A DNA stretch of 64,000 nucleotides from the NCBI GenBank assembly GCA_963768805.1, contig CAVYJI010000010.1, forward strand, positions 163,947 through 227,946, in the 5' to 3' direction. Numbering within the stretch: the first letter of the stretch is position 1; each line of letters starts with the position of its first letter. A program made the translations under genes and the position numbers. The notes under the pieces are model-generated. The model was not told the origin of the DNA. It saw only the letters and a list, made by a program, of their open reading frames with translations, and did no database searches. Of this stretch, positions 40,465 through 62,902 are shown piece after piece. The DNA comes from an uncultured Bacteroidales bacterium (GTDB lineage: Bacteria > Bacteroidota > Bacteroidia > Bacteroidales > FEN-979).

Positions 40465-41868
40465 TTATTGCTTCACAAACTTCCCCACTTCCACAATCCT
40501 ATCATTAGTTAGTCGCACGAAATAAACTCCGCTGGGCAGAGCGCTTATGTCAATCTGTGTTTTTGGTGGTATAATCTGGCGCTTAATAAATTCCTGTCCC
40601 TCGATATCAACTATTGTAAGATTGCCGCCTTGTGACATCCCGGATAGGTCTACCGTTATTTTATCTGTCGCTGGATTAGGATAGATAGATAACCTTGATT
40701 CCTGTAACTTATTTATCCCGGCATAGACTGAATCATATTTCATTACTGTTGGTTTTATTGTATCTAAGGAATATCTTCCTCCATAAGCGACGCAGGGTTT
40801 ACCAGTTAAATCAAAAGCCAGGCTTGTATAATCAGCTTCCCCTGCTGAAAAATCAGATGGACCCACATTCACCCAATTGTTTCCATCAAATCTCATAACT
40901 GTTGCTTTGCCCGAATGATTAGAATCTGCATAAGCTACAAAGAGCTGACCATCAGTCGGTCTGAAGGCAAGGCTTGTATAATTAATCACACCTGCTGAAA
41001 AACCCTCAGTCCCTACATTGATCCAATTTGAACCGTCAAATTTCAATACTGTAGCTTTACTTTCATTACTACCATCACCATATCCCAAATATGGAAGAGT
41101 ATCAATTGGACTGAAAGCGAGACTTTCACAACATGTCTCTCCCATCGCTATACCTGATGAAGAACCTATATAAACCCAGCTATTCCCATCAAATTTCATA
41201 ACAACCGCATTTTGATTTAATTCAAAAGATGAAAATGCCACATATGGTAAACCGTCAGAAGGGCTGATGGCAAGGCTTGGATATGAACAACGGTCAATTT
41301 GAAGAAAACCACTTCCCACATACACCCAATTGGTGCCATCAAATTTCATTACTGCGATTTCCTCGGCAAATAAAGTACAATTAAAAGCGACATAGGGTTG
41401 TCCGGATGGACTGATAGCGAAACTTAAGTCAAGAACTGAACCATTTGGTGGTGTAAAGGATTCATATCCCACATCTACCCAGTTGTTTCCATTGAACATC
41501 ATTACAGTTGCTTCCCCATCTCGTCCATCAACAAATGCCACATAAGGCAAACTATCAATTGGATTAAATGCGAGCTTGGTATTAAATGCCTGATCCGTAG
41601 AAAAACCTGCTTTGCCAACATTCACCCAGTTACTCCCGTCAAATTTCATCACTGTTGCCCTTTCAGAATTCGCCCAATCTTGAAACGCTACATATGGCTC
41701 GCCCGATGGGCTAAATGCAAGGCTTGTAAATGCAACCCCTGATTGTGAAAACCCCGCATATCCAACATTCTTCCATGCATAATTCAGTGGAGAAGATTTG
41801 TACCAGGGTGATTGTGCACTGGCAACAACAGGGAACAAGAAAAGTAAAATACGGATAAGTCTTTTCAT
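40465..41868 (-). CDS. T9SS-secreted protein with seven ~50-aa repeats (putative beta-propeller)
   Basis: Signal peptide; seven WxxVG...SLAF...PYVAF...VMKFDG repeats; IYPNP...SGVYFVRL...KFVKQ C-terminal domain. Confidence 0.85.
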   Translation of the reverse strand: MKRLIRILLFLFPVVASAQSPWYKSSPLNYAWKNVGYAGFSQSGVAFTSLAFSPSGEPYVAFQDWANSERATVMKFDGSNWVNVGKAGFSTDQAFNTKLAFNPIDSLPYVAFVDGRDGEATVMMFNGNNWVDVGYESFTPPNGSVLDLSFAISPSGQPYVAFNCTLFAEEIAVMKFDGTNWVYVGSGFLQIDRCSYPSLAISPSDGLPYVAFSSFELNQNAVVMKFDGNSWVYIGSSSGIAMGETCCESLAFSPIDTLPYLGYGDGSNESKATVLKFDGSNWINVGTEGFSAGVINYTSLAFRPTDGQLFVAYADSNHSGKATVMRFDGNNWVNVGPSDFSAGEADYTSLAFDLTGKPCVAYGGRYSLDTIKPTVMKYDSVYAGINKLQESRLSIYPNPATDKITVDLSGMSQGGNLTIVDIEGQEFIKRQIIPPKTQIDISALPSGVYFVRLTNDRIVEVGKFVKQ

Positions 41869-42286: not shown

Positions 42287-42352
42287 CATACCTATCACTG
42301 GCTGGAGTGCTGAAAAGCCTTGTTTTACCTGGTAATAGCTAAAAAAGGTGTG

Positions 42353-43906
42353 ATGATCATAATCGGAAACCGTAAACTGACGATCGGCGATTTCTTCAAG
42401 GTGTTGTTTGAAGGTGAACGAGTAGACATTGATATAGAATCCCGTCGAAAAGTTGCTGAAGACTTTGAGTTCCTGAAAGAGTTTGCCAAGGGGAAAGTGA
42501 TCTATGGCATCAATACTGGCCTGGGGCCCATGGCCCAGATCAAGATCAACGACAACCGGGAACTGGAACTGCAATACAACCTGATACGAAGCCATGCAGC
42601 AGGTTGCGGTTCTCCCCTCCCCGATATTTATGCCAAAGCCACCATGCTTGCACGACTGAACACGTTGGTCCAGGCTAAATCAGGGATCCATCCCGAGGTT
42701 GTGGAGTTGCTGAAAGAGATGATCAACAGGGATATCAACCCTTATATCCCGGAACACGGAGGCGTGGGCGCCAGTGGTGACCTTGTCCAGTTAGCCCATC
42801 TGGCCGTGAACCTGATCGGTGAAGGAGAAGTATCATACAAAAGAGTTTTGCGTCCTACAGCTGAAGTTTTAAAAGAGGAAGGCCTGGCGCCCATCAAGAT
42901 GCACATCCGCGAAGGACTGGGGCTGATCAACGGAACTTCTGCCATGACCGGGATAGGGATGATCAATGCCATCCATGCACATAACCTGCTTGATTGGTCT
43001 ACCCTGGCTTCATCCATGATAACTGAGATCGTGGAATCATATGATGATCATTTTTCCGATGGGCTGAACAATGCAAAATCACATCACGGGCAAAGACAGG
43101 TTGCCCGGAACATGAAATTCATCCTCAGGGATAGCCAGCTGATCCGTCGCCGGGCAGATCATCTTTACAATAATGATAAAACAATTGAAGTTGAAGTTTT
43201 CAAGCACAAGGTGCAGGAATATTATTCCCTGCGCTGTGTTCCACAGGTACTGGGACCTGTAATGGATACTATATTATATTCCAACCATGTGCTTATGAAT
43301 GAAGTGAACTCCACAAGTGATAATCCTATCATTGACGGGGAACATCACAATGTTTACCATGGCGGTAATTTTCATGGTGATTATGTTGCCCTGGAAATGG
43401 ACAAGCTTAAGATTGCTATTACTAAGTTATCGATGCTTGCCGAAAGACAATTGAACTATTTAATGAATCCGAAGCTTAACGAGAAACTACCGCCGTTCGT
43501 AAATCTTGGCAGACTTGGTCTCAACCTTGGCATGCAGGGAGTTCAATTCACTGCGGTTTCAACGGTTGCCGAGAATCAGACACTTTCATTCCCTATGTAT
43601 ATCCACAGTATTACCAACAATAACGATAACCAGGATATTGTAAGCATGGGGACCAATGCTGCACTGATTGCGAAAAAGGTCATTGATAATACTTACCAGG
43701 TGCTGGCCATAGAGATGATCTCTATCCTCCAGGCCATTGACTATCTTCAGATCAAAGACAAATTATCTTCTTATTCATTCAGTAAATACATGGACCTGCG
43801 GCAGATCGTTCCGAAATTCACGGAAGATACGATCAAGTACAACGACATCCGCAACATCGAACAATATATCATGGAGAACAAACCTCAGTTTTCAGTAGAT
43901 GAATGA
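42353..43906 (+). CDS. Aromatic amino acid ammonia-lyase (HAL/PAL/TAL family; probable tyrosine ammonia-lyase)
   Basis: IYGINTG, LQYNLIRSH, MIO-forming GASGDL, YSLRCVPQ, GGNFHG and NQDIVSMG motifs; first gene of the cluster. Confidence 0.9.
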   Translation: MIIIGNRKLTIGDFFKVLFEGERVDIDIESRRKVAEDFEFLKEFAKGKVIYGINTGLGPMAQIKINDNRELELQYNLIRSHAAGCGSPLPDIYAKATMLARLNTLVQAKSGIHPEVVELLKEMINRDINPYIPEHGGVGASGDLVQLAHLAVNLIGEGEVSYKRVLRPTAEVLKEEGLAPIKMHIREGLGLINGTSAMTGIGMINAIHAHNLLDWSTLASSMITEIVESYDDHFSDGLNNAKSHHGQRQVARNMKFILRDSQLIRRRADHLYNNDKTIEVEVFKHKVQEYYSLRCVPQVLGPVMDTILYSNHVLMNEVNSTSDNPIIDGEHHNVYHGGNFHGDYVALEMDKLKIAITKLSMLAERQLNYLMNPKLNEKLPPFVNLGRLGLNLGMQGVQFTAVSTVAENQTLSFPMYIHSITNNNDNQDIVSMGTNAALIAKKVIDNTYQVLAIEMISILQAIDYLQIKDKLSSYSFSKYMDLRQIVPKFTEDTIKYNDIRNIEQYIMENKPQFSVDE

Positions 43907-43941: not shown

Positions 43942-44670
43942 ATGAAATATGCGCTCGTAACCGGAGGTTCAAGAGGCATTGGAAGAGCTGTTTGCTGTAA
44001 GCTTGCAGAGATGGGTTTTTATATTCTGGTCAATTACAATTCCAGCCCGGAAGAAGCTGCAATCACCCTGAACCTGGTGAAGGAAAAAGGAAGCGATGGG
44101 GAACTTATCAAGTTCGATGTCGCCCTTAAGGAAGAAGTGGAAAAAGCGCTTAGTGACTGGCAAGCACACAATGAAGGAAAGACTATCCAGATATTGATTA
44201 ATAATGCAGGTATCCGGAGGGATGCCCTTTTGATGTGGATGAAGGATGAGGAGTGGGATGATGTTCTTAAAACCAACCTGGACGGGTTCTTTTATTGTAC
44301 AAGATTTCTCATAAAAGACATGCTGATCTCTAAATTCGGCAGGATTGTCAACGTGGTTTCACTATCAGGGATAAAAGGATTGCCGGGACAAGCCAATTAT
44401 TCTGCGGCTAAAGCAGGTATTATCGGAGCGACTAAAGCGCTGGCCCAAGAAGTTGCCAAGAAGAATGTGACCGTGAATGCTGTTGCACCCGGTTTCATAC
44501 AATCTGACATGACCAAGGACCTGGATGAGAACCAGCTCAGGACGATGATCCCGATGAACCGGTTTGGCAAGCCTGAAGAGGTTGCAGAAATTGTCGGGTT
44601 CCTGGCTTCTGAAAAAGCTTCTTATATTACGGGGGAGGTCATTAATGTGAACGGTGGCCTTTACACCTGA
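43942..44670 (+). CDS. fabG: 3-oxoacyl-ACP reductase
   Basis: TGGSRGIG, NNAG, NYSAAK and VNGG SDR motifs. Confidence 0.92.
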   Translation: MKYALVTGGSRGIGRAVCCKLAEMGFYILVNYNSSPEEAAITLNLVKEKGSDGELIKFDVALKEEVEKALSDWQAHNEGKTIQILINNAGIRRDALLMWMKDEEWDDVLKTNLDGFFYCTRFLIKDMLISKFGRIVNVVSLSGIKGLPGQANYSAAKAGIIGATKALAQEVAKKNVTVNAVAPGFIQSDMTKDLDENQLRTMIPMNRFGKPEEVAEIVGFLASEKASYITGEVINVNGGLYT

Positions 44671-44695: not shown

Positions 44696-45925
44696 ATGTC
44701 GATGAACAGGGTTGTCATTACCGGAATGGGTATATATTCTGTCATTGGGAAGGATCTCGGTGAGGTTAAGAATTCATTATACGAGGGAAGATCGGGGATT
44801 ATATTTGATCCGGTCCGCAAGGCAATAGGATTCCGTTCCGCACTCACCGGCACTGTTGAGCGTCCTGTCCTTAAGGGCATTCTCGACCGCCGCATGCGTG
44901 TAGGATTACCAGTCCAGGGTGAATATGCTTACATGGCAACTGTCGAGGCATTGCGTAATGCAGGTATCGATGCTGCTTTCATGGAAAAAAATGATGTAGG
45001 CATCCTTTACGGTAATGACAGTTCTGCTTTACCCGTCGTTGAATCGGTGGATATCCTGCGTCAGAAAAAAGACACCATGATGATCGGATCGGGATACATC
45101 TTTCAATCGATGAATTCCACCGTTTCGATGAACCTCTCAGTGATCTTTAAGTTCAGGGGGATCAATTTCACGGTCAGTGGCGCATGTGCCAGCGGATCAC
45201 ATGCCATAGGCATAGGGTTCCTTCTTATCCGTCAGGGTTTGCAAGAAGTAATTGTCTGCGGTGGCGCGCAGGAGATCAACGTTGAATCGACGGCGAGCTT
45301 CGATGCGCTGAATGCATTTTCCACACGCGAATCGGAACCTGAAAAAGCATCAAGGCCTTTTGACCGCGACCGTGACGGACTTGTTCCCAGCGGCGGAGCT
45401 GCAACGGTCATTCTGGAGAGTTATGAATCTGCGATCAGAAGAGGTGCAACGATCTTAGGTGAAGTGGTTGGTTATGGATTTTCTTCCAACGGCGAACATA
45501 TCTCCCTGCCAAATGTTGATGGTCCGGTCTCAGCCATGTCGCTGGCATTGAAAGACGCAGGGATGGATGCTTCAGATATCGATTATATCAATGCACATGC
45601 AACATCAACGCCTGCAGGAGATGAAAATGAAGCCAAAGCCATTGACCAGATTTTTGGCAAGTCACGTCCGCCGGTCTCAAGCACAAAATCGATGACAGGA
45701 CACGAGATGTGGATGGGTGGAGCGAGCGAGATCGTCTATTCCACGCTGATGATGAATAATGACTTCATTGCGCCAAATATTAATTTTGACAATCCTGATA
45801 AATACACTGAACTCCTGAATATTGCCTCGCATACAACCCAGGCTGAGATCAAGGCATTTCTGTCAAACTCTTTCGGATTCGGAGGAACCAACTCTTCCCT
45901 TATCGTCAGAAAAATTAATCAGTAA
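44696..45925 (+). CDS. Beta-ketoacyl-ACP synthase (KS)
   Basis: GACASGSH, NAHATST, KSMTGH and SFGFGG motifs (Cys-His-His intact). Confidence 0.92.
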   Translation: MSMNRVVITGMGIYSVIGKDLGEVKNSLYEGRSGIIFDPVRKAIGFRSALTGTVERPVLKGILDRRMRVGLPVQGEYAYMATVEALRNAGIDAAFMEKNDVGILYGNDSSALPVVESVDILRQKKDTMMIGSGYIFQSMNSTVSMNLSVIFKFRGINFTVSGACASGSHAIGIGFLLIRQGLQEVIVCGGAQEINVESTASFDALNAFSTRESEPEKASRPFDRDRDGLVPSGGAATVILESYESAIRRGATILGEVVGYGFSSNGEHISLPNVDGPVSAMSLALKDAGMDASDIDYINAHATSTPAGDENEAKAIDQIFGKSRPPVSSTKSMTGHEMWMGGASEIVYSTLMMNNDFIAPNINFDNPDKYTELLNIASHTTQAEIKAFLSNSFGFGGTNSSLIVRKINQ

Positions 45926-45970: not shown

Positions 45971-46222
45971 ATGATGCAAAATGAGGAGATCATAAAGAGA
46001 ATCAATCAGTTACTGATTGATGAAATCGAAATTGACGAAGAACAGATTTCCCCTTCAGCCGATCTGAAAAAAGACCTGGGAATAGACAGTCTTGATTTTG
46101 TTGATCTCTTCGTGATCATAGAGAATAATTTCGGTTTCAAGATGAAAGCCGAGGAGATGACCGATATAAAGAAGCTGGATGATTTTTATGCATATGTGAT
46201 CCGGAGAGTCAATCCAAATTAA
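45971..46222 (+). CDS. Acyl carrier protein
   Basis: Acidic 83-aa protein with LGIDSLD phosphopantetheine site. Confidence 0.93.
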   Translation: MMQNEEIIKRINQLLIDEIEIDEEQISPSADLKKDLGIDSLDFVDLFVIIENNFGFKMKAEEMTDIKKLDDFYAYVIRRVNPN

Positions 46223-46228
46223 CTGTTA

Positions 46229-48505
46229 ATGTCATCATGGAAAGGCAAAACACGAGGGGGCGTCCTGGGATATAAGATCTTCGTCTGGACCCTTAAGCAT
46301 TTTGGACTTTCTTTTGCCTATTTCCTTCTTATATTTGTCGTTACCTATTTCATATTCTCTTCAAGGAAAGCATTTCGCTCTATCTATTATTATTTTCACA
46401 GGATACTAAATTATAGCGTTCTTCATTCGTTGGGCAGTGTTTATCTGAATTATTATTATTTCGGGCAGATCATACTGGATAAGATAGCGATCCTGGCCGG
46501 GTTGCAGCAAAAGTTCACTTTCAATTTTGAAGGAGAGGAATATCTCCGCCAGATGGACAAGGGTGGCCTGCTTATCAGCGGGCATATCGGGAACTGGGAG
46601 ATTGCAGGGCAGTTGCTCAACCGGCTTGAAAAGAATATCAACATCATATTGTACGATGCAGAGCATGAGCAAATCAAAGGTTACTTATCGAATGTATTCA
46701 CTGAGCGCAAGGTCAATTTCATCATCATAAAGGAAGATTATTCACACTTGCAGGAGATCAGGGAAGCGCTGGAACGCCATGAGATCATAGCCATGCATGG
46801 CGATCGTTTCATAGAAGGAAATAAGGTATTCCAGGTGGATCTGCTGGGGAAGCCTGCCCTTTTTCCTGCAGGGCCCGTTAATCTCGCTGCTCGTTTCGGA
46901 GTGCCTGTCTCATATGTCTTTGCAGTAAAAGAGACCAGGAAGCACTATCATTTTTTTGCCACTCCATTACGAAATGTTGAATTTTCGACGAACCTGAAGA
47001 AAAGGGAGATCATCCTGAAAGAAGCAGTGGAGGCTTATGTTGCAGCGCTCGAGAAGATTGTAACCAGGTATCCGCTCCAGTGGTTCAACTATTATAAATT
47101 CTGGGATTTGCGGGAAAAGACCTCATATCCGGGAGCGCCTGGCAGAATAAAAAAAAGAAAATTACTTCTTGTTTCTTCAAATCAATGTGTTTTTCCTTAC
47201 CCGGTCTACCCTATCGGGCTTTCATATATCTATTCCTATCTTTCAGCAAGGTTACCTGACTTCGAGATCCGTATTTTCGATTTTAATTTTCATACCCTGG
47301 CATCTTTCCGTGAATTTCTTCTTGAGTTCAGGCCTGATTATACGGGTATCTCCCTGCGTAATATGGATGATGTGGACTCAACCCGAAAGACATGGTTTCT
47401 GAAGGGATACAAGGATATCATTGAGACGCTAAAAAATAGTGTGAGCACCCGCATCATTATCGGCGGATCTGCATTTTCCATATTCCCAATTGAATTATTC
47501 AAGTACTTTGAGCCTGACTTCGGTATCTGCGGTGAGGGGGAAGAAAGCATGTTTAACCTTCTCCAGTGCCTGGAAAATAAAACGGATCCCTCTTCCATAG
47601 AAGGACTGGTATACAGGAATTCAGAGGGGATCCAGATGAACCCTAGGAACCATTACCTGAAGCAGTTGGATCTTTCATTCGATATCGATCTTCTTGATTT
47701 TTACTGGAAAAAAAGCGGGATGCTTAACATTCAGAGTAAGCGGGGGTGCCCTCATAAATGTATTTATTGCACTTATCCTCTTATTGAAGGAAGAGAAGTC
47801 AGGACGCTGAATGCAGATAAAATTGTCGAGACCTTGTCCGAACTGTATTTTGACAAGGATATCAATTATGTTTTCTTTACAGATTCTGTCTTCAACATCA
47901 ATGATTCATTCAATATTGAGCTGGCTGAAAAAATACTGAAAGCACGTTTAAAAATCAAATGGGGCGCTTATTTTTCCCCTCACGGCCTGGACAGGCAGAC
48001 ATTGCAGCTTTATGCAGATGCAGGGCTGACCCACATAGAATTCGGGACAGAATCACTTTCTGATACCACTCTGAAAAATTATGGCAAGCATTTTACTGTA
48101 CAGGAAGTCGTTGATGTTTCAGATCTCTGCAATGAAATAGGGATCTATTTTTCTCATTTCCTGATCCTTTGCGGATATGGAGAGACGGAAGAAACGATCA
48201 ATGAAGGATTTGAGAACTCGAAGCGTTTCAACAATACGGTCTTCTTCCCTTATATCGGCATGCGTATCTATCCCGGTACCCGCCTGCAGGAGTTGGCTAT
48301 TAAAGACGGCGTAATCTCCTCTGAAGACGACTTACTGGAACCGGTATACTATCTGGCTAAAGGAATCAATTACAGCACTTTAAAAGAACGGGCTGATAAA
48401 ACAGGGAGAAGGTTTGTATTCCCTGATGAAGATGTCGTTACAGTGATGAATAAAATGAGGGCCCGGCAAAGAAAAGGAATGTTATGGCATCATCTGAAAA
48501 AATAA
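46229..48505 (+). CDS. Fusion: LpxL-like acyltransferase + B12-binding/radical SAM lipid-biosynthesis protein
   Basis: Residues ~1-292: WKGKTRGG, GHIGNWE, HGDRF, YPLQWFNYY. Residues ~310-758: LLLVSSN...PYPVYPIGL, IIGGSAFS, GEGE, RGCPHKCIYC, FTDSVFN, EFGTES. Confidence 0.88.
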   Translation: MSSWKGKTRGGVLGYKIFVWTLKHFGLSFAYFLLIFVVTYFIFSSRKAFRSIYYYFHRILNYSVLHSLGSVYLNYYYFGQIILDKIAILAGLQQKFTFNFEGEEYLRQMDKGGLLISGHIGNWEIAGQLLNRLEKNINIILYDAEHEQIKGYLSNVFTERKVNFIIIKEDYSHLQEIREALERHEIIAMHGDRFIEGNKVFQVDLLGKPALFPAGPVNLAARFGVPVSYVFAVKETRKHYHFFATPLRNVEFSTNLKKREIILKEAVEAYVAALEKIVTRYPLQWFNYYKFWDLREKTSYPGAPGRIKKRKLLLVSSNQCVFPYPVYPIGLSYIYSYLSARLPDFEIRIFDFNFHTLASFREFLLEFRPDYTGISLRNMDDVDSTRKTWFLKGYKDIIETLKNSVSTRIIIGGSAFSIFPIELFKYFEPDFGICGEGEESMFNLLQCLENKTDPSSIEGLVYRNSEGIQMNPRNHYLKQLDLSFDIDLLDFYWKKSGMLNIQSKRGCPHKCIYCTYPLIEGREVRTLNADKIVETLSELYFDKDINYVFFTDSVFNINDSFNIELAEKILKARLKIKWGAYFSPHGLDRQTLQLYADAGLTHIEFGTESLSDTTLKNYGKHFTVQEVVDVSDLCNEIGIYFSHFLILCGYGETEETINEGFENSKRFNNTVFFPYIGMRIYPGTRLQELAIKDGVISSEDDLLEPVYYLAKGINYSTLKERADKTGRRFVFPDEDVVTVMNKMRARQRKGMLWHHLKK

Positions 48506-48924
48506 TAGTGACTGAAGGGACAATAGGACAATACATCCCGCAAAAGCCTCCGATCGTTATGATCGGGAAGCTGATTGATGTAACCGATACCCAAACTACT
48601 ACTTCACTGGTTATCCAGGAGGATAATCTGTTTTGCAGTGAAGGATTTTTAAGAGAGCCGGGCCTTATTGAAAACATAGCCCAGACTGCAGCAGCCGGCA
48701 AAGGGTACGTTTCGAAAATGGCAGGGAAAGAGCCTCCGGTCGGATTTATAGGGGGGTTGAGAGATCTGAAGATCCATGAACTTCCCAGGGTGGGTAGTGA
48801 AATCAGAACGGAAGTCACGTTGTTACATAAAGTCTTAGAAGCAACTGTTGTAAATGGAAAAGTCTATCTCGGTGACCGGTGCATTGCAGAATGCGAATTG
48901 AAGATATTCTTGCTACCAACCTGA
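48484..48924 (+). CDS. Hotdog-fold 3-hydroxyacyl-ACP dehydratase
   Basis: IPQKPPIVMI, GLIENIAQTAAA and VGFIGG motifs. Confidence 0.8.
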   Translation: MASSEKIIVTEGTIGQYIPQKPPIVMIGKLIDVTDTQTTTSLVIQEDNLFCSEGFLREPGLIENIAQTAAAGKGYVSKMAGKEPPVGFIGGLRDLKIHELPRVGSEIRTEVTLLHKVLEATVVNGKVYLGDRCIAECELKIFLLPT

Positions 48925-49016: not shown

Positions 49017-49412
49017 ATGGAACAAGAATCAAATCCTGTTTACAAAAACCAGGCCTATGGCCAGTTCAGGGAACTTTTCTATTCTTATGGAGAAAGCGGC
49101 AGTTTTGAAAAACGCGTAGGATACCATGGAGAATCTGACAGGGTCACCCTTCAGCAAGCATGGGATCTTTTCAATGACCGGATTGAAGAAGCCAGGCAGA
49201 AAGTCAAAGCCGGGTTAGCCAGCCCGATTTTATATTACATGGAAAAAACACTTGTAACACCAATGGATCTTTCAATGCATGCTGGCATCATGGTTTGGAG
49301 AGTTAAACGTCACCTTAAACCAAAGGTATTTAACCGTCTCAGCGAGAAGACTTTGAAAAAATACACTGAAGTCTTCAACATCACACTCGAACAATTAAAA
49401 AATATTGATTAA
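49017..49412 (+). CDS. Hypothetical protein of flexirubin-type clusters (possible C-terminal HTH)
   Basis: SPILYYME...WRVKRHLKP...LKKYTEVF motifs; precedes the BtrH-like gene; TACCTTCG promoter-like site at 48971-48978. Confidence 0.7.
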   Translation: MEQESNPVYKNQAYGQFRELFYSYGESGSFEKRVGYHGESDRVTLQQAWDLFNDRIEEARQKVKAGLASPILYYMEKTLVTPMDLSMHAGIMVWRVKRHLKPKVFNRLSEKTLKKYTEVFNITLEQLKNID

Positions 49413-49428
49413 TTAAACCGTTCATATA

Positions 49429-50448
49429 ATGGAAAACAACAAAATTATGATAGATTATAAACACCGCCAGGCTGGTCATTGCGAAAGCGGTGCTACTTCA
49501 AATCTTTTTAACTTTTATGGTGTCGAAATGTCAGAACCGATGGCGTTCGGGATTGGGAACGGGTTGTATTTCAGCTACCTCCCCTTTCTGAAACTTCAGT
49601 TTGCCCCGATGATTTCATTTCGTAACCTGCCTAATACGGTATTTCACCGGTCGATGAAGTACCTGGGCGTGGATGCCACCGTGATCAAGAATTTCAAGGA
49701 ACCAAAGGAGTCGATGGCTGTGCTTGACCAGAACCTTGAAAAAGGAATTCCAACCGGCATGCAGGTTGGCGTTTTCAACCTGACCTTTTTCCCTCCTGAA
49801 TACCGGATGCATTACAATATGCATAACATTGTAGCTTTTGGCAAAGAAGGCAACGATTACTGGGTCAGTGATACCGTGATGGAATTTCCACAGCGGATCT
49901 CTTTTGAAGATCTTCAGAGGGTGCGTTGGGCAAAAGGAGCCTTTGCTCCCAAAGGAAAGATGTACTGGATCAATAATGTAAAAAAAGAGCTGGATATCAA
50001 GTCGGCAGTTGAAAAAGGGATAAAGAAGACGGTATATGAAATGATCAAGGTCCCCTTTCCCCTTATCGGAGTCAAAGGGATCCATTGGCTTGCAAAGGAC
50101 CTGAAGAAATGGCCGAAGAAGCATGGTAATGAAACTGCATCTTTTTACCTTGGTCAGATCATACGCATGTCGGAAGATTTCGGGACAGGCGGGGCCGGAT
50201 TCAGGTATATTTATGGGGCATTTCTTAAAGAAGCAGGAGAAAAATTCAACAACCCTGATCTGACCGCTGCTTCAGTCATGATGGGCAATGCTGCCAATCG
50301 TTGGAGGGAATTTACTTATATTGGTGCCCGCAATTGCAAGAATCGGTCAAAGCCTGAAGAAGATTACGGAAAACTCAGCAATATGCTGCATGAGATTGCA
50401 GATATGGAAAAAGATGTCTACGTAAAACTGGATAAAATAAAGTTCTAA
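49429..50448 (+). CDS. BtrH N-terminal domain / DUF4872 protein (papain-like fold)
   Basis: HCESG, SEPMAFGIG, HNIV and GTGGAGFRYIY motifs. Confidence 0.82.
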   Translation: MENNKIMIDYKHRQAGHCESGATSNLFNFYGVEMSEPMAFGIGNGLYFSYLPFLKLQFAPMISFRNLPNTVFHRSMKYLGVDATVIKNFKEPKESMAVLDQNLEKGIPTGMQVGVFNLTFFPPEYRMHYNMHNIVAFGKEGNDYWVSDTVMEFPQRISFEDLQRVRWAKGAFAPKGKMYWINNVKKELDIKSAVEKGIKKTVYEMIKVPFPLIGVKGIHWLAKDLKKWPKKHGNETASFYLGQIIRMSEDFGTGGAGFRYIYGAFLKEAGEKFNNPDLTAASVMMGNAANRWREFTYIGARNCKNRSKPEEDYGKLSNMLHEIADMEKDVYVKLDKIKF

Positions 50449-57435: not shown

Positions 57436-58317
57436 TTATTTCCAGAAATTATAATAATTATGCCACTGCAGCGGATATTTTCGAGTTATCCTTTCAAGTT
57501 CAGCAACATACTCTTTTACAGAGTCAATCACCACGGCTGAACGTTCCATTGGATTTTTAGCAGGTGGAATGATCTTTAAAGGAGTGGCATAAAACCTATA
57601 TTTTCTGCGTGATTCTTTTAGAGCAAAAACATAAGAAACCGGAACATTGAAATAAGATGCCATATGCCATGGGCCTAACGGAAAAAGAGCAGGCTCACCT
57701 AAAAAATCAATTTTAACTGTTTGATTTCCATCTATAAACCTGTCGCCAAGAAAAGATACTAGTTCTTTATTCTCCAGGGCTTGTTTTATTTCAAACAAAT
57801 GTGAGAAGTCATTACCAATTTTGATAAAGTAAACATTCCGGTCGGTTATAACATCGGAAATGTACTCACTAATAGCTTGCCATTCAGCATCTATAATAAC
57901 CAAACTGATTTTCTTATCAAGAAAGTCGAGTGCTTTTCCTCCCACTTCCCAATTCCCGATATGACCGCTGATAAGTATACCTCCATCTCTCATTCGCAAC
58001 AAATCCTCTTTTCCTTCAAGGATAAAGTCGAATTTGTCCTTCAAGCCGGCCAGTACGGCGGTCCTGTCAATCAATCCCTGGCCCAACAGATAGTAATTCC
58101 TATAAATGCTTACGATTGATTTAACACGGTTATGTCCAAGACGTCCATGGAAAAAGTAAAATAATGATCCGAATGTCTTTTTAGATGTAAAAACAAAATA
58201 AGCAGAAACAAAAATTAACAGGAAATAGGCAAAATCAATTCCCAGGTGCATTATGGTCCAGACAAATATCCTGTATCCAAGAACGCTTCCTCTGCTTTTG
58301 CCTTCCCAGGTGGCCAT
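57436..58317 (-). CDS. Stand-alone LpxL-like acyltransferase (paralog of the N-domain of 46229)
   Basis: WEGKSRGS, GHIGNWE, LGDRF and YPLQWHNYYNFW motifs. Confidence 0.88.
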   Translation of the reverse strand: MATWEGKSRGSVLGYRIFVWTIMHLGIDFAYFLLIFVSAYFVFTSKKTFGSLFYFFHGRLGHNRVKSIVSIYRNYYLLGQGLIDRTAVLAGLKDKFDFILEGKEDLLRMRDGGILISGHIGNWEVGGKALDFLDKKISLVIIDAEWQAISEYISDVITDRNVYFIKIGNDFSHLFEIKQALENKELVSFLGDRFIDGNQTVKIDFLGEPALFPLGPWHMASYFNVPVSYVFALKESRRKYRFYATPLKIIPPAKNPMERSAVVIDSVKEYVAELERITRKYPLQWHNYYNFWK

Positions 58318-59017: not shown

Positions 59018-62000
59018 TTAAAATACTGAAATACCGCTTTCAAATGGCATGTGCATAATGAAAAACACATTGGAGGTTATTTTCTTTTGACCTATCATTT
59101 CAAATACCAGTCCATATTCCTCCGCTATTTCAGCGAGACTCTGAGCTGAAGTGAAATAAAGTTTTCCCGTTCCATCCTGAGTTTTATTGAATCGAATAAT
59201 TCTTGTGGAGAAAAATTCGGTGAATTTTGTATACTTATGTCTTCTTTGTTTATCTGAATTACCTTCCCTGATGAGGATCACGCCCCCCGGTTTAAGATTT
59301 CTAATGCAATCCTGCAGAAGTGATTTCTGTTTGTCATATGGAAGATAATGCAGAACATCACCAAGAAGAAATCCATCCTTCGGAGTTATTAGGTATTCAG
59401 TAATATCAGCATTTATAAAAGTGATCGCGCTGTCTTCCAGGTATCCATGTCTGGCGAAAGAGATCTTTTTTTCATCATAGTCGACACCAGTAATTATACG
59501 TTCATTGGATGTGAGCTTCAGCATATATGAAATGTAACCATACCCACAGCCAAGATCAAGGATCTCTCCTGTACCTGGCAACAGGTTACAATAAGTACTA
59601 AAATTGTTCTCAAGTGCCATTTTAACACGAAGGTACCATTCCAGGACAGGTCCTTTATAAACATAATTTAGTCTTAGGTTCAATGCATTATAAGCAGGTG
59701 TATTGTGCCTGGTCCTGAAAGAAAGATACTCTTCGATCAAATATTGACGGACTTGCTTTGTTCTGTCAGGGTAATTGTTTCCAAACGTTTGATCCTCAGG
59801 CGAAATCCTTGGCAGGATCCTGGTGAAAAGCTGGTTTGGCTTTCTCCAGAAAGTCTCTTCAGAATAAGAATCGCCACTTCCATATATAAGTACAGGAAGA
59901 ATATCAATCCCTAGTTTTTCTGCGATATAGAAGGCGCCAGGATAAAAGTCCTGAATATTACCATTTTTTGAACGGTGCCCTTCAGGGAAGATCAAAAAAG
60001 AGTAGCCGTCACATACCATCTGCTTCAGATAAGAAAGTGAATCGTCAATATTTTCTGGCTGACAGGCAAATCCTGCAAGCCTCATAGGTCGATAAACCCA
60101 GCCAGGGAATACCAAATCACCGGTCAATACAACAATCCTGGAGTGCAGCCCCAGAAGTGCAGGAATATCAATAAGTGATTGATGATTACAAATGATGATC
60201 GCCGGTTTTTGAAATGTTTCAGCCTCTTTATTTTCGACGGCATGATGCGATGGGAAATTCAATTGGATATAAAAGCAGCTAAGTGAACTGACGAGATGAT
60301 GAAAAACTTCTTGCTTACGTTTTTTCCGAACGGGCATCAAAGGGTTTATCAATCTCCTATAAACGACTAAAACGAAAGTGATAATTAAAAGAGGGATCCA
60401 GGTAAAAAGTAGAGAATGTAAAATAATCCTGGCGGTCAATGGGGAACTTCTCCTTTTCTGACGATCCAGCAAGATCCATCTGGCAATCAAAGATTGATAT
60501 GAGAAGGAAATAACAACGACACTTATAATTCCAACAATTGATAACAATGCAACAGAATTCAAGGCCGGGTGCCTGGCAAAGAAAAGCGCTCCGACACCTA
60601 TAAGCGTTGTAGACGATGAGAGAAGAATTGAAACCTGGTAAGTGCTCATATCATTCACCCCCGTCCTGTATTGGCTCAGAAGTCCCCGCATCATCAAGAT
60701 GCTGTAATCTACTCCCAAACCAAAAATAAAAGAAGAAATAATAATGTTGAAGATATTGAATCTGAGACCAGTGATCCCCATGAATCCGAGCGTGATCAAC
60801 CAACTGAAGAACATGGGCAGGGCAGTAATTATTGTTAGTTCGATCCGGCCTAGTGAGATCAGCAATAACAGGGTAACAACCAGCATTGACAAGGTGATCA
60901 ACAGTTCAAAATCATGTTTAACGGTTAGGACGAACCGTTCAGCGAGGCTCTGCCTGTCGAAAATGACCAGGTCAGGATCCGCTGAAAATGTTCTGTAAAC
61001 TGTTTGTTTTTCGGAATCTGTAACCCTGGCAATCCCCGATATCATGGTCATATAAGGAGTCTGGTTGATCCAATCTGAGAAAAGAAGATTGCGTAAGGCA
61101 TTGACCTGTCCAGCAGGGATAGACGAAAAATCAGTATTCAGCAGGGATCTGATCCCTGAAAATGCTCTTTCATTGTACCCAACCTGTTTTCCTTCTTTGA
61201 CCAACTGATTAAGAAGCAATTGTTTTCGCTCCGTTGTCCAGAATTCATTCCATTTATGCAACCTGTCAGCTTGCATAGAATCAGAAAGCAGGAGCTCATT
61301 AATCCCTGAAAAATCATGAATCTTTCTTTGTTTTTTAAGTGTTTCAAGCTTTTTCCGTGTAATCTCATTCCGTCTCAATGCGCTATTGAGATCCTTTCCC
61401 ACAGATACGATATATACATCCTTCAGCTTATTGCCAGAAAGCTGATCAAGATGTTTTTCAGCATTTCTCAAAAATTCCGGCATATAATTCAGAGTATTCA
61501 GGTCTTTTTCAAATGAAACCCTGCCGGCGAAAAAAAAGCTGACCACTACTGCCAATGCCAGTCCAGCCAGCAACCAGATTTTCTTTCCAAAATCGATTTC
61601 AGCAATCCTGTCGACAATGGTCCCCCTTACAACCTCATTTTCAGCAGGCAAGATCGACTTACCGAAAAACTGTGGCAGGATTATCAGTGCACACAATGAT
61701 GCCCCAAGCACACTGATGGAAGCAAACCAGCCCAGATCATGAAGAACATCCGAATCAAGAAAGGTCAGGCAGAGAAATACACCGATCGTAGTAATACTAC
61801 ACATAATTATGGTATGGGACATGTCAGTAATAACCTGTTCAACCGATTTCTTTTTCCTGTAATGGTTGACCATATACAAGGCATAGTCGATAATCAACCC
61901 AAGGATGACCGATCCAATCCCAAGTGCTATAAATGAGATCTTGCCATTGATCAGGTATAAGACAACCATGGCAAGTCCGCCACCGAAGAAAGCAGGGATA

Positions 62001-62902
62001 AACCCGAGCAGAGGGACCAGGAAATTCCTGAAGTACCATCCAAGCAACAGAATAATGAGAACAACAGCTATGCAAAGGGTCAATATGATATCCAGTTTTA
62101 TCTGGTAGGCATTTCCGACAGCTGTTGCAGCATATCCATAATATTCAATACGGACATGGCTTTTCTGACTTGAATCAAGGCCGATATATTTATTCAATCT
62201 TGAAATCAGAACAGAATTCTTATTGGTTTCAGTTGATGGATTGGCTGGTGTAATAAACATCAGAAGATGTTTTTTATCCCGGGAAAATACGCAGCCACTG
62301 TAAAGAATATAATGATCATCCTGCTGAAGTGATCTGAACCTTTTAGAAGCCATTCCTGAGATACCCAATGGATCTTTAATTATTCTTTGCTGAAGTACCA
62401 TACTGGCTGGTGAGTTCAATATTTTGAAGTTGTTGTTCAGCAGGGATCCAAGATGCCCGGGATTCATTAAACTATCAATTGATCTGTAATCAGTTTCATC
62501 CAGAAATAATGGCAAGTGTTTATCAATTACATTTTGGACATAATCAAACAGAGTGTCATTAAATTGCAGGAATACCTGGCGGATATATGTGGAATCAAGG
62601 CTTGACAAAAGACTGTCACGTAAGTTCTCCGCAGCAGCAATCAGGAGTTCAGGATTAGCTTCTGAAGTGGTATCAGCAAGTGAGAAATGAATGATCAACT
62701 TATCCGCAAATTTGAAATTCCGGATCACATATTCATAAGGACTAAGAGAATTGCTTCCTGGAGTTATACTTGTAATATCTTCTTCCAACCTGATCTTTGA
62801 AGCAAAAAAAAGTATTGCCCCAGCCACTATACCCAAAAAAAGAAAAAACACCCACCTGTTGTGATGAAAAAAACGATATATATTGATAAAGAATGTTGAC
62901 AT
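59018..62902 (-). CDS. Trifunctional MMPL transporter / PlsC acyltransferase / class I SAM methyltransferase
   Basis: Two MMPL halves (GLIIDY, GLGVDY), NHQSLID and FPEG PlsC motifs, and an ILDLGCGYG methyltransferase motif. Confidence 0.9.
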   Translation of the reverse strand: MSTFFINIYRFFHHNRWVFFLFLGIVAGAILFFASKIRLEEDITSITPGSNSLSPYEYVIRNFKFADKLIIHFSLADTTSEANPELLIAAAENLRDSLLSSLDSTYIRQVFLQFNDTLFDYVQNVIDKHLPLFLDETDYRSIDSLMNPGHLGSLLNNNFKILNSPASMVLQQRIIKDPLGISGMASKRFRSLQQDDHYILYSGCVFSRDKKHLLMFITPANPSTETNKNSVLISRLNKYIGLDSSQKSHVRIEYYGYAATAVGNAYQIKLDIILTLCIAVVLIILLLGWYFRNFLVPLLGFIPAFFGGGLAMVVLYLINGKISFIALGIGSVILGLIIDYALYMVNHYRKKKSVEQVITDMSHTIIMCSITTIGVFLCLTFLDSDVLHDLGWFASISVLGASLCALIILPQFFGKSILPAENEVVRGTIVDRIAEIDFGKKIWLLAGLALAVVVSFFFAGRVSFEKDLNTLNYMPEFLRNAEKHLDQLSGNKLKDVYIVSVGKDLNSALRRNEITRKKLETLKKQRKIHDFSGINELLLSDSMQADRLHKWNEFWTTERKQLLLNQLVKEGKQVGYNERAFSGIRSLLNTDFSSIPAGQVNALRNLLFSDWINQTPYMTMISGIARVTDSEKQTVYRTFSADPDLVIFDRQSLAERFVLTVKHDFELLITLSMLVVTLLLLISLGRIELTIITALPMFFSWLITLGFMGITGLRFNIFNIIISSFIFGLGVDYSILMMRGLLSQYRTGVNDMSTYQVSILLSSSTTLIGVGALFFARHPALNSVALLSIVGIISVVVISFSYQSLIARWILLDRQKRRSSPLTARIILHSLLFTWIPLLIITFVLVVYRRLINPLMPVRKKRKQEVFHHLVSSLSCFYIQLNFPSHHAVENKEAETFQKPAIIICNHQSLIDIPALLGLHSRIVVLTGDLVFPGWVYRPMRLAGFACQPENIDDSLSYLKQMVCDGYSFLIFPEGHRSKNGNIQDFYPGAFYIAEKLGIDILPVLIYGSGDSYSEETFWRKPNQLFTRILPRISPEDQTFGNNYPDRTKQVRQYLIEEYLSFRTRHNTPAYNALNLRLNYVYKGPVLEWYLRVKMALENNFSTYCNLLPGTGEILDLGCGYGYISYMLKLTSNERIITGVDYDEKKISFARHGYLEDSAITFINADITEYLITPKDGFLLGDVLHYLPYDKQKSLLQDCIRNLKPGGVILIREGNSDKQRRHKYTKFTEFFSTRIIRFNKTQDGTGKLYFTSAQSLAEIAEEYGLVFEMIGQKKITSNVFFIMHMPFESGISVF

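Follow-up and report, generated by a model that had tools for sequence, protein, structure and literature searches.

The 64,000-nucleotide (nt) stretch of contig CAVYJI010000010.1 analysed here, referred to as the window (assembly GCA_963768805.1, an uncultured Bacteroidales bacterium), carries at positions 46229–48505 of the forward strand a gene in which an acyltransferase is joined to a cobalamin (B12)-binding radical S-adenosylmethionine (SAM) enzyme. The question raised by this locus is whether the union is real and, if so, what the two enzymes do together. The gene is a genuine in-frame fusion of enzymes that are mostly encoded as adjacent genes in a flexirubin-like aryl-polyene cluster. 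The best explanation overall, a cobalamin-dependent radical methylase coupled to chain off-loading, has about an even chance of being correct. What is new is that a known acyltransferase and a known radical-SAM family are recurrently fused in a variant of the flexirubin cluster that lacks DarB; it is not a new kind of system.

The open reading frame starts with ATG, shows no internal stop and encodes 758 amino acids (aa), in agreement with the first-pass annotation, which was made from the sequence alone. Residues 1–292 (46229–47104) display an acyltransferase domain of the LPLAT/LpxL-PatA fold, recognised by Pfam Lip_A_acyltrans (PF03279; residues 97–287, 40.1 bits against a gathering cut-off of 22.3) and by Foldseek. 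The linker DLREKTSYPGAPGRI follows (residues 293–307, 47105–47149), delimited by alignment with split relatives and by low model confidence. The remainder, residues 311–756 (47159–48496), is a TIGR04072 B12-binding/radical-SAM domain, assigned by profile score and by a match to TsrM. The TIGR04072 assignment made in the first-pass annotation is correct: the NCBIfam model gives 418.6 bits on the fused protein against a curated equivalog cut-off of 360, with model positions 1–441 of 443 covered (420.5 bits in the genome-wide search).

The same annotation described the second domain as a B12-binding part followed by a radical-SAM core, and proposed a profile scan for both. The radical-SAM part stands: Pfam Radical_SAM is found at residues 505–659 (70 bits), and CPHKCIYC at residues 507–514 (47747–47770) is a CX3CX2C radical-SAM cluster motif with invariant cysteines C507, C511 and C514. 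For the B12-binding part, residues 312–467 align to the cobalamin domain of TsrM, but the Pfam model PF02310 is not reported at E ≤ 0.01 on the fused protein, so that TIGR04072, Radical_SAM and Lip_A_acyltrans were recovered by the scan and the B12-binding Pfam model was not. PF02310 is present in the precomputed domains of most homologues. An AlphaFold2 model built on a 30-row alignment displays two folded domains (mean predicted local distance difference test, pLDDT, 73.9; predicted template modelling score 0.53) with pLDDT < 50 across linker residues 293–307. A complex prediction of the acyltransferase half (1–296) with the radical-SAM half (311–758), also on a 30-row alignment and run without controls, gives a score of 0.00 against a mark of 0.32; such a model score would count neither for nor against a complex. 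A protein atlas search with the whole protein yields only generic B12/radical-SAM clusters at a score of 0.84, below the 0.9 level.

The junction differs from that of the split congeners in three ways. In the congeners the acyltransferase stop is followed a few bases on by the ATG of the radical-SAM gene (MNKRK/MDKRK/MERRK...), mostly in a different frame; one congener has an in-frame TAA between the two. In the fused gene, by comparison, the stop is lost, the frames are joined and the ATG of the second gene has become ATA, which agrees with the earlier remark that the second domain has no Met at its start. This ATA is codon 307 (47147–47149), the last codon of the linker, and an A8 run is situated at 47149–47156. 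There is no other ATG at the start of the radical-SAM domain; the one conventional start that could stand in for it is the in-frame TTG of codon 294. Two other samples yield Logan contigs that span the junction without a mismatch or gap, one from run X2 of the same study (47073–47600) and one from run X5 of another study, a peat metagenome (47043–47340); the Logan contigs of X6 and X7 stop short of it. The check for a stop or frameshift proposed in the first-pass annotation, carried out here on contigs, thus finds neither. In addition, the fragment P0040, 97% identical, shares the linker of the fused gene. Because of the changes in stop, frame and ATG, the identical contigs from two other samples and the linker of P0040, the fusion is almost certainly real and not an assembly error.

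Two further observations concern the junction in related genomes. In a congener of the same genus (L011/L020, G003:C6) both genes are in one frame and are separated by a single TAA (…HRFE, stop, QKMEKRR…), which places this locus one point mutation from a fusion. In two congeneric metagenome-assembled genomes (MAGs), L018 (G012:C9) and G011:C3, the acyltransferase matches are in pieces and in different frames while the radical-SAM frame is open for 742–761 aa; these broken acyltransferases are either assembly frameshift errors or decaying genes.

The pairing of the two genes extends well beyond the window. In a survey of 80 species-representative loci from GTDB genomes, many of them cut by contig ends, the two genes lie next to each other in 73, as separate genes in 62 and as a fusion in 11. 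Loci count as fused if one frame stays open from the radical-SAM match upstream into the acyltransferase match; three of these 11 extend to a contig edge. Seven loci show no adjacent acyltransferase; two of these (L082, L098) begin too near a contig end to judge. The conserved order is FlxA, FlxB, beta-ketoacyl synthase (KS), acyl carrier protein (ACP), acyltransferase, radical-SAM enzyme, dehydratase, DarG, DarH, two ATP-binding cassette (ABC) genes and a thioesterase. The dehydratase is present in 78 loci, DarG in 70, the ACP in 69, the KS in 67, DarH in 65, FlxB in 60 and FlxA in 53.

The fusion is less singular than the first-pass annotation implied, and the search for the same architecture in other genomes that it suggested succeeded. 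Among the 120 best database matches 38 are at least 700 aa long and contain both domains, and fused forms carry the Joint Genome Institute (JGI) name ‘predicted LPLAT superfamily acyltransferase/radical SAM superfamily enzyme’. The architecture is therefore already in public databases under automatic names. By their record titles the relatives come from MAGs labelled, for example, Bacteroidales, Prolixibacteraceae, Draconibacterium or Marinilabiliales. Across 41 aligned forms the linker varies in length and in sequence and is always in frame.

A HMMER search of 1.84 billion cluster representatives gives 911 representatives at E ≤ 1e-30 for the whole fused query, and the species genomes contain 556 confirmed TIGR04072 stretches. 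Three extra forms came from the HMMER search. P0125 (754 aa) has the same architecture at only 36% identity, with a TIGR04072 score of 429.9 bits. P0140 (599 aa) consists of TIGR04072 with a FabZ-like dehydratase at its C-terminal end, and P0133 (807 aa) displays a SPASM-type (NirJ/AhbD-like) radical-SAM domain ahead of TIGR04072. The TIGR04072 domain is thus fused to both of its neighbours in different lineages, and this is the strongest argument that the acyltransferase, the radical-SAM enzyme and the dehydratase share a substrate. The acyltransferase and the radical-SAM enzyme probably work together; the functional coupling of the two halves proposed in the first-pass annotation agrees with the adjacency in 73 and the fusion in 11 of the 80 loci, with the repeated fusions described below and with the same fusion at 36% identity.

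As a separate observation, three typical Bacteroidales clusters (L038, L052 and L083) are found in MAGs labelled Hyphomicrobiales, Thiohalospira sp. and Candidatus Egerieisoma sp.; mis-binning of the contigs or wrong labels on the bins are likely.

For the radical-SAM domain, a maximum-likelihood tree of 111 rows (29 fused, 82 split) requires six changes of state, at least five of them forced by well-supported branches. Fourteen fragments or near-duplicates were left out (P0015, 17, 19, 21, 23, 26, 27, 28, 38, 39, 40, 41, 44 and 100), as were P0124, P0125 and P0132, which were not caught by the motif pattern. A single clade of all fused forms is rejected by the approximately unbiased test (p = 2.2e-6), the group tested having been chosen after a first tree had been seen. 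From the tree the fusion appears to have arisen or been lost repeatedly, not to have had one origin. One large clade keeps the fusion throughout (29/29 rows in the first tree) while its linker diverges. The fused protein of the window groups with nine split rows in a supported 10-row clade; the closest form to it is P0042, which is split and 87% identical.

The acyltransferase half is an LPLAT-fold enzyme with an LpxL-like fold. By fold it matches LpxM (5kn7, E-value = 2.5e-11, target-normalised TM-score 0.62) and PatA (target-normalised TM-score 0.63–0.69). It contains the HX4E motif HIGNWE (46583–46600), in which H119, G121, N122, W123 and E124 are invariant among 30 fused homologues. H119 and E124 we take to be the catalytic dyad, and a PDB title, ‘LpxM ... 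catalytic residue substitution (E127A)’, is consistent with a catalytic role of HX4E. An N-terminal hydrophobic helix, with a hydropathy maximum at residues 25–43 and a model helix at 10–44, is a probable membrane anchor. The half reaches none of the LpxL/PatA equivalog cut-offs, the best being 39.9 bits against 248 (NF006270) and the others lower. LpxL proper was considered as an identity and is ruled out by scores far below every LpxL equivalog cut-off. As stated in the first-pass annotation, the half resembles a stand-alone acyltransferase paralogue of 293 aa in the same window (57436–58317, reverse strand; PF03279 35 bits). The two share 53% identity over 292 aa (154/292, E-value = 7e-121), and the end of the paralogue aligns at YPLQWHNYYNFW.

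The radical-SAM half scores next best, after TIGR04072, with the curated families BzaD (197 bits) and Trp 2-C-methyltransferase (115 bits), followed by the slr0320 family (101 bits) and HpnJ, PhpK and BchE (about 80–90 bits), all far under their cut-offs. The closest solved relative is TsrM (6wte), with an E-value of 7e-24 by sequence over both domains and 3e-21 by fold; OxsB, MgmA, AprD4, TokK and CysS follow as fold matches. A downstream cobalamin-binding motif, G373-x-S375-x-R377 (47345–47359), aligns to G65-x-T67-x-R69 of TsrM, and D552-S553-V554 (47882–47890), at the position of the ‘GGE’ motif, aligns with D271-S272-E273 of TsrM, so that Val takes the place of Glu273. G373, S375, R377, the three cysteines and D552-S553-V554 are invariant in both alignments examined (20 and 30 sequences). 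In the available text of PMC9204698, Arg69 of TsrM leaves the lower face of the cobalamin unligated and favours methyl transfer, and Glu273 ligates the unique iron, which accounts for the lack of radical chemistry in this enzyme; methylation of Trp at C2 is documented there as well. Since the Arg is kept and the Glu is replaced by Val, SAM would be expected to bind the cluster and give a 5′-deoxyadenosyl radical, with methyl transfer from methylcobalamin. By this analogy the radical-SAM half is most likely a class-B, cobalamin-dependent C-methyltransferase. Of the two features that mark the non-radical TsrM type, the equivalent of Arg69 is present (R377) and that of Glu273 is not (V554).

A mechanism may be proposed on this basis. 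Both halves together with the FabZ-like dehydratase would act as a single complex on the cytoplasmic side of the inner membrane, and the substrate would be a chain on the ACP encoded just upstream, which is the probable carrier. SAM held on the open unique iron of the [4Fe-4S] cluster would be cleaved to a 5′-deoxyadenosyl radical, this radical would activate a carbon of a pantetheine-bound aryl-polyene or acyl intermediate (either the ring position ortho to the phenol or one in the chain), and methylcobalamin would donate a methyl group to the activated carbon. The acyltransferase half would then shift the finished chain from the ACP to a hydroxyl acceptor.

The relation of the gene to classical flexirubin clusters was examined in 300 other genomes drawn evenly from the phylum and in 24 genomes of the family to which the window belongs; these are samples, in which related genomes are not independent of one another. 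TIGR04072 is found at E ≤ 1e-60 in none of the 300 phylum-sample genomes. FlxA is above cut-off in 17 of them; of these 17, DarB is present at E ≤ 1e-100 in 13 (12 above cut-off) and TIGR04072 in none, and TIGR04072 and DarB never occur together in any FlxA-positive genome of the sample. In the family of the window the distribution is the reverse. The fusion protein is matched in 24/24 genomes, 22 of them with a strong radical-SAM match (the two weak ones are 70–80% complete), and DarB is found at E ≤ 1e-30 in 0/24. DarB is likewise not found in the host genome itself, a 3.86-Mb MAG that is 99.3% complete, where the best score is 80.7 bits against a cut-off of 550. In five of six classical clusters FlxA, FlxB, the KS and the ACP are followed by an acyltransferase 31–49% identical to the first domain of the fused protein; this domain is therefore the counterpart of the flexirubin-cluster acyltransferase, the ‘FlxE position’ being assigned from gene order in the genomes examined. 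What comes next in the classical clusters is a dehydratase directly after the acyltransferase in L108, L111 and L112, whereas L107 shows a 300-aa gene, DarB (676.5 bits) and then the dehydratase. The 300-aa gene (L107:6180-7082), a DarA candidate, gives 0 family matches in NCBIfam and Pfam. A radical-SAM gene is found at the acyltransferase/dehydratase position in none of the six. From these comparisons the radical-SAM gene appears to be a lineage-specific addition that goes with the absence of the dialkylresorcinol synthase. Since it accompanies a DarB-less flexirubin-type cluster in this bacterial family, the product is probably a flexirubin-like lipid pigment unlike classical flexirubin.

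Three other explanations compete with a radical methylase coupled to off-loading. One is that the fusion is accidental, a neutral loss of the stop between translationally coupled genes with independent products, or else an assembly error. A fusion here would be mutationally cheap, with intergenic gaps of a few codons and a single in-frame TAA in one congener; the A8 run lies at the junction, and the protein is nested among split forms with P0042 as its split neighbour. These points are outweighed by the three coordinated changes that separate it from the split congeners, the identical sequence in contigs of two other samples, the large clade that retains the fusion in all 29 rows with a diverging linker, the recurrence of the architecture at 36% identity and the adjacency kept in 73/80 loci, and an accidental origin is very unlikely. 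A different possibility is that the radical-SAM half catalyses, instead of methylation, some other radical reaction of the acceptor or of the chain held by the ACP (C–C bond formation, cyclisation, aromatisation or desaturation, for example), supplying the DarA/DarB role in largely anaerobic Bacteroidales. The complementary distribution of TIGR04072 and DarB fits this idea, as does locus L107, where darA-darB lies exactly between acyltransferase and dehydratase, the same slot as the radical-SAM gene. That correspondence holds in only one of six classical clusters, however; elsewhere DarB lies apart or the dehydratase directly follows the acyltransferase. V554 would leave the iron site open to radical chemistry, non-methylating cobalamin radical-SAM enzymes are known (available text of PMC9204698), and TIGR04072 was first noted in clusters tied to polyunsaturated hydrocarbons and ladderanes (available text of PMC2649909). 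On the other side, the Arg under the cobalamin is tied to methyl transfer in TsrM in the same text of PMC9204698. The nearest characterised relatives by score and fold are methylases, and a distant StlD/DarB-family KSIII with an adjoining B12 radical-SAM gene farther along the island is a better head-group candidate. A non-methylating role is thus unlikely.

The third explanation keeps methylation and moves it to the aryl ring: the radical-SAM half would methylate an aromatic sp2 carbon in the manner of TsrM or BzaD and give the polyene its 3-methyl-4-hydroxyphenyl head. Among characterised families, BzaD, an aromatic C-methylase, and Trp 2-C-methyltransferase score best after TIGR04072. The equivalent of Arg69 is kept, and the available text of PMC3992019 derives the ring methyl of flexirubin from methionine. 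Yet Glu273, the residue tied to the non-radical mechanism of TsrM, is Val in 30/30 and 20/20 aligned sequences, class I methyltransferase domains are already present in the island, and all 17 FlxA-positive genomes elsewhere in the phylum lack TIGR04072. Because flexirubin-cluster genomes elsewhere do without it, TIGR04072 is not a general flexirubin ring methylase, and a ring-methylating role in this lineage is quite unlikely.

Several points weigh against the preferred reading of a radical methylase coupled to off-loading. The literature search turned up no experiment with a TIGR04072 protein, and methylation is for that reason an analogy. Other cobalamin radical-SAM enzymes carry out ring contraction, cyclisation and dehydration (HpnJ, BchE, AprD4, OxsB). 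The flexirubin-cluster genomes that lack TIGR04072 belong here as well, and the ring methyl could come from the class I methyltransferase domains of the island (one at 59018–62902, one in a second copy) or from an ICMT-like methyltransferase. Five loci (L084, L091, L092, L094 and L096) have upstream DNA with no acyltransferase in it, the radical-SAM gene coming directly after the ACP or FlxB, and the coupling is thus not obligatory. The fusion in the window is itself recent and may be selectively neutral, the in-frame TTG at codon 294 could permit separate initiation of the second half, and the junction evidence consists of assembled contigs rather than raw reads.

A flexirubin-like island of about 55 kb, starting at 42320, surrounds the fused gene; the genes named next are on the forward strand. 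FlxA, a tyrosine ammonia-lyase (42320–43906; 827.6 bits, cut-off 700), is followed by FlxB, a short-chain dehydrogenase/reductase (43942–44670; 404.7 bits, cut-off 340), a beta-ketoacyl-ACP synthase at the FlxC position identified by profile match (44696–45925) and the ACP (45971–46222), which ends 6 nt upstream of the fusion and matches ACP models at 52–60 bits, all under cut-offs of 65–71. On the 3′ side a FabZ-like dehydratase (48484–48924, a weak FabZ match) overlaps the end of the fusion by 22 nt. Then come a DarG-family protein (49017–49412; DarG_fam 116.7 bits, cut-off 70), which stays below the flexirubin_DarG equivalog cut-off (116.4 vs 170), and DarH, a BtrH-related acyltransferase (49429–50448; 411.7 bits, cut-off 300; BtrH_N and DUF4872). 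After DarH the window contains an ABC pair, a thioesterase, two ketosynthase/chain-length-factor (KS/CLF) pairs with a second ACP, the acyltransferase paralogue, the ICMT-like methyltransferase and a 1294-aa fusion. The latter (59018–62902, reverse strand) joins an MMPL/HpnN-like resistance-nodulation-division exporter, a PlsC-type 1-acylglycerol-3-phosphate acyltransferase and a class I SAM methyltransferase. A second triple MMPL-PlsC-methyltransferase fusion of 1235 aa is found at L100:53-3760 (G000:C10:245053-248760); the available text of PMC3992019 gives the classical cluster one gene for the exporter and another for the acyltransferase.

Many relatives, e.g. L020:8693-10105, carry an extra pair of a DarG-like protein (132 aa) and a BtrH/DUF4872 DarH-like protein (334 aa) in a stretch of about 1.9 kb that separates the dehydratase from DarG. 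The window has one DarG/DarH pair only, against two in many relatives. Just upstream of the island, at 40465–41868 on the reverse strand, is a 467-aa protein with a type A sorting domain of the type IX secretion system (Por_Secre_tail), which fits a Bacteroidota host.

The island runs about 25 kb past the end of the window (L099, G000:C10:226000-245000, then L100). Found there are KS/CLF genes, a polysaccharide deacetylase, a dehydratase, a thioesterase, two crotonases, and LolA2 and LolB2 of the flexirubin type (221.4 vs 125 and 81.6 vs 60). A distant StlD/DarB-family KSIII is directly followed by a 513-aa HpnJ-like B12 radical-SAM enzyme. Also present are a hydroxyacyl-CoA dehydrogenase, FabF, a FabD-like protein, a glycosyltransferase, a CrtD/phytoene-desaturase-like gene, a second TIGR04072-like gene (327 bits, under the cut-off) and an HpnR-like B12 radical-SAM enzyme. 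The HpnJ-like, TIGR04072-like and HpnR-like genes make three extra B12-binding radical-SAM genes beyond the window. In its makeup past the window the island recalls the Kuenenia and Desulfotalea islands.

Since 2009 TIGR04072 has figured in discussion solely as a candidate from ladderane/polyunsaturated-lipid islands. Its repeated fusions to an acyltransferase, and to a dehydratase, point to its partners and to a probably ACP-bound substrate, and they tie the family to a pigment pathway that is tractable and whose phenotype is visible. The complementary distribution of DarB suggests that mined ‘flexirubin-type’ clusters of anaerobic Bacteroidales make a product other than textbook flexirubin. 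A wider proposal, which is speculative and rather unlikely as a whole, is that TIGR04072, the FlxE-type acyltransferase and the FlxF-type FabZ-like dehydratase may form one ACP-processing machine that replaces the DarA/DarB branch in a mostly anaerobic Bacteroidales family (Prolixibacteraceae-like by record titles). Radical chemistry dependent on cobalamin would then build or decorate the chain or head group of an undescribed class of flexirubin-like membrane pigments. If true, no ketoacyl-type lipid other than ladderanes and jawsamycin would have been known before to undergo radical-SAM tailoring, and the natural fusions would be soluble, stoichiometric constructs for assaying the ‘ladderane-type’ radical-SAM family. 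No publication was found in the literature searched on the fusion, on TIGR04072 or on a radical-SAM/cobalamin enzyme together with flexirubin.

FAS-like islands of Kuenenia stuttgartiensis and Desulfotalea psychrophila are reportedly where TIGR04072 came to notice. The available text of PMC2649909 names two radical-SAM pairs, Kuste3343/DP1855 and Kuste3342/DP1853. The fused protein agrees with the family in its full-length match, its cobalamin domain and its CX3CX2C core, and the surroundings are alike in being rich in KS paralogues, ACPs, FabZ-like dehydratases and B12 radical-SAM genes, with a polysaccharide deacetylase and a phytoene-desaturase-like gene. Here, in contrast, the domain is fused to an acyltransferase within a FlxA-primed aryl-polyene cluster of Bacteroidales. 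The first-pass annotation had called the enzyme ‘ladderane-island’ type. The lipid/polyene context in this description stands, but the label is only the history of a profile name, the setting being a flexirubin-like aryl-polyene cluster and not anammox. A ladderane producer was set aside on the organism and the FlxA-primed context alone.

With LpxL/LpxM and PatA the acyltransferase half shares a PF03279 match above threshold, the HX4E motif, the N-terminal hydrophobic helix and the LpxM/PatA fold; it differs in that its gene follows that of an ACP within a pigment cluster, the arrangement also seen in classical flexirubin clusters. TsrM, the best relative of the radical-SAM half by sequence and fold (PDB 6wte/6wtf), has in common with it the G-x-S/T-x-R motif that places an Arg under the cobalamin. 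Identity is about 20%, the C-terminal region differs and the iron-ligating Glu273 is an invariant Val in the TIGR04072 half, and whereas the substrate of TsrM is free tryptophan, that of the TIGR04072 half is presumably lipid or ACP-bound. TokK/ThnK and CysS show the same cobalamin and radical-SAM architecture (fold matches, E-values 1e-12 to 2e-11) at 16–18% identity, with other C-terminal domains and in antibiotic pathways rather than lipid pigments. By their PDB entry titles TokK and CysS are class-B methylases acting on pantetheinylated substrates, and they provide precedents for the methylation of carrier-linked intermediates.

The closest likeness of the locus as a whole is to the classical flexirubin clusters (Chitinophaga pinensis flxA-flxY and Flavobacterium johnsoniae, as given in the available text of PMC3992019), with which it shares FlxA, FlxB, KS, ACP, acyltransferase, dehydratase, a DarG-family protein, DarH, the ABC pair, thioesterase, LolA2 and LolB2 in similar order. 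The island described here differs from them in that it has no DarB, in that a TIGR04072 gene is inserted after the acyltransferase, and in that it carries three more B12 radical-SAM genes and two MMPL-PlsC-methyltransferase fusions.

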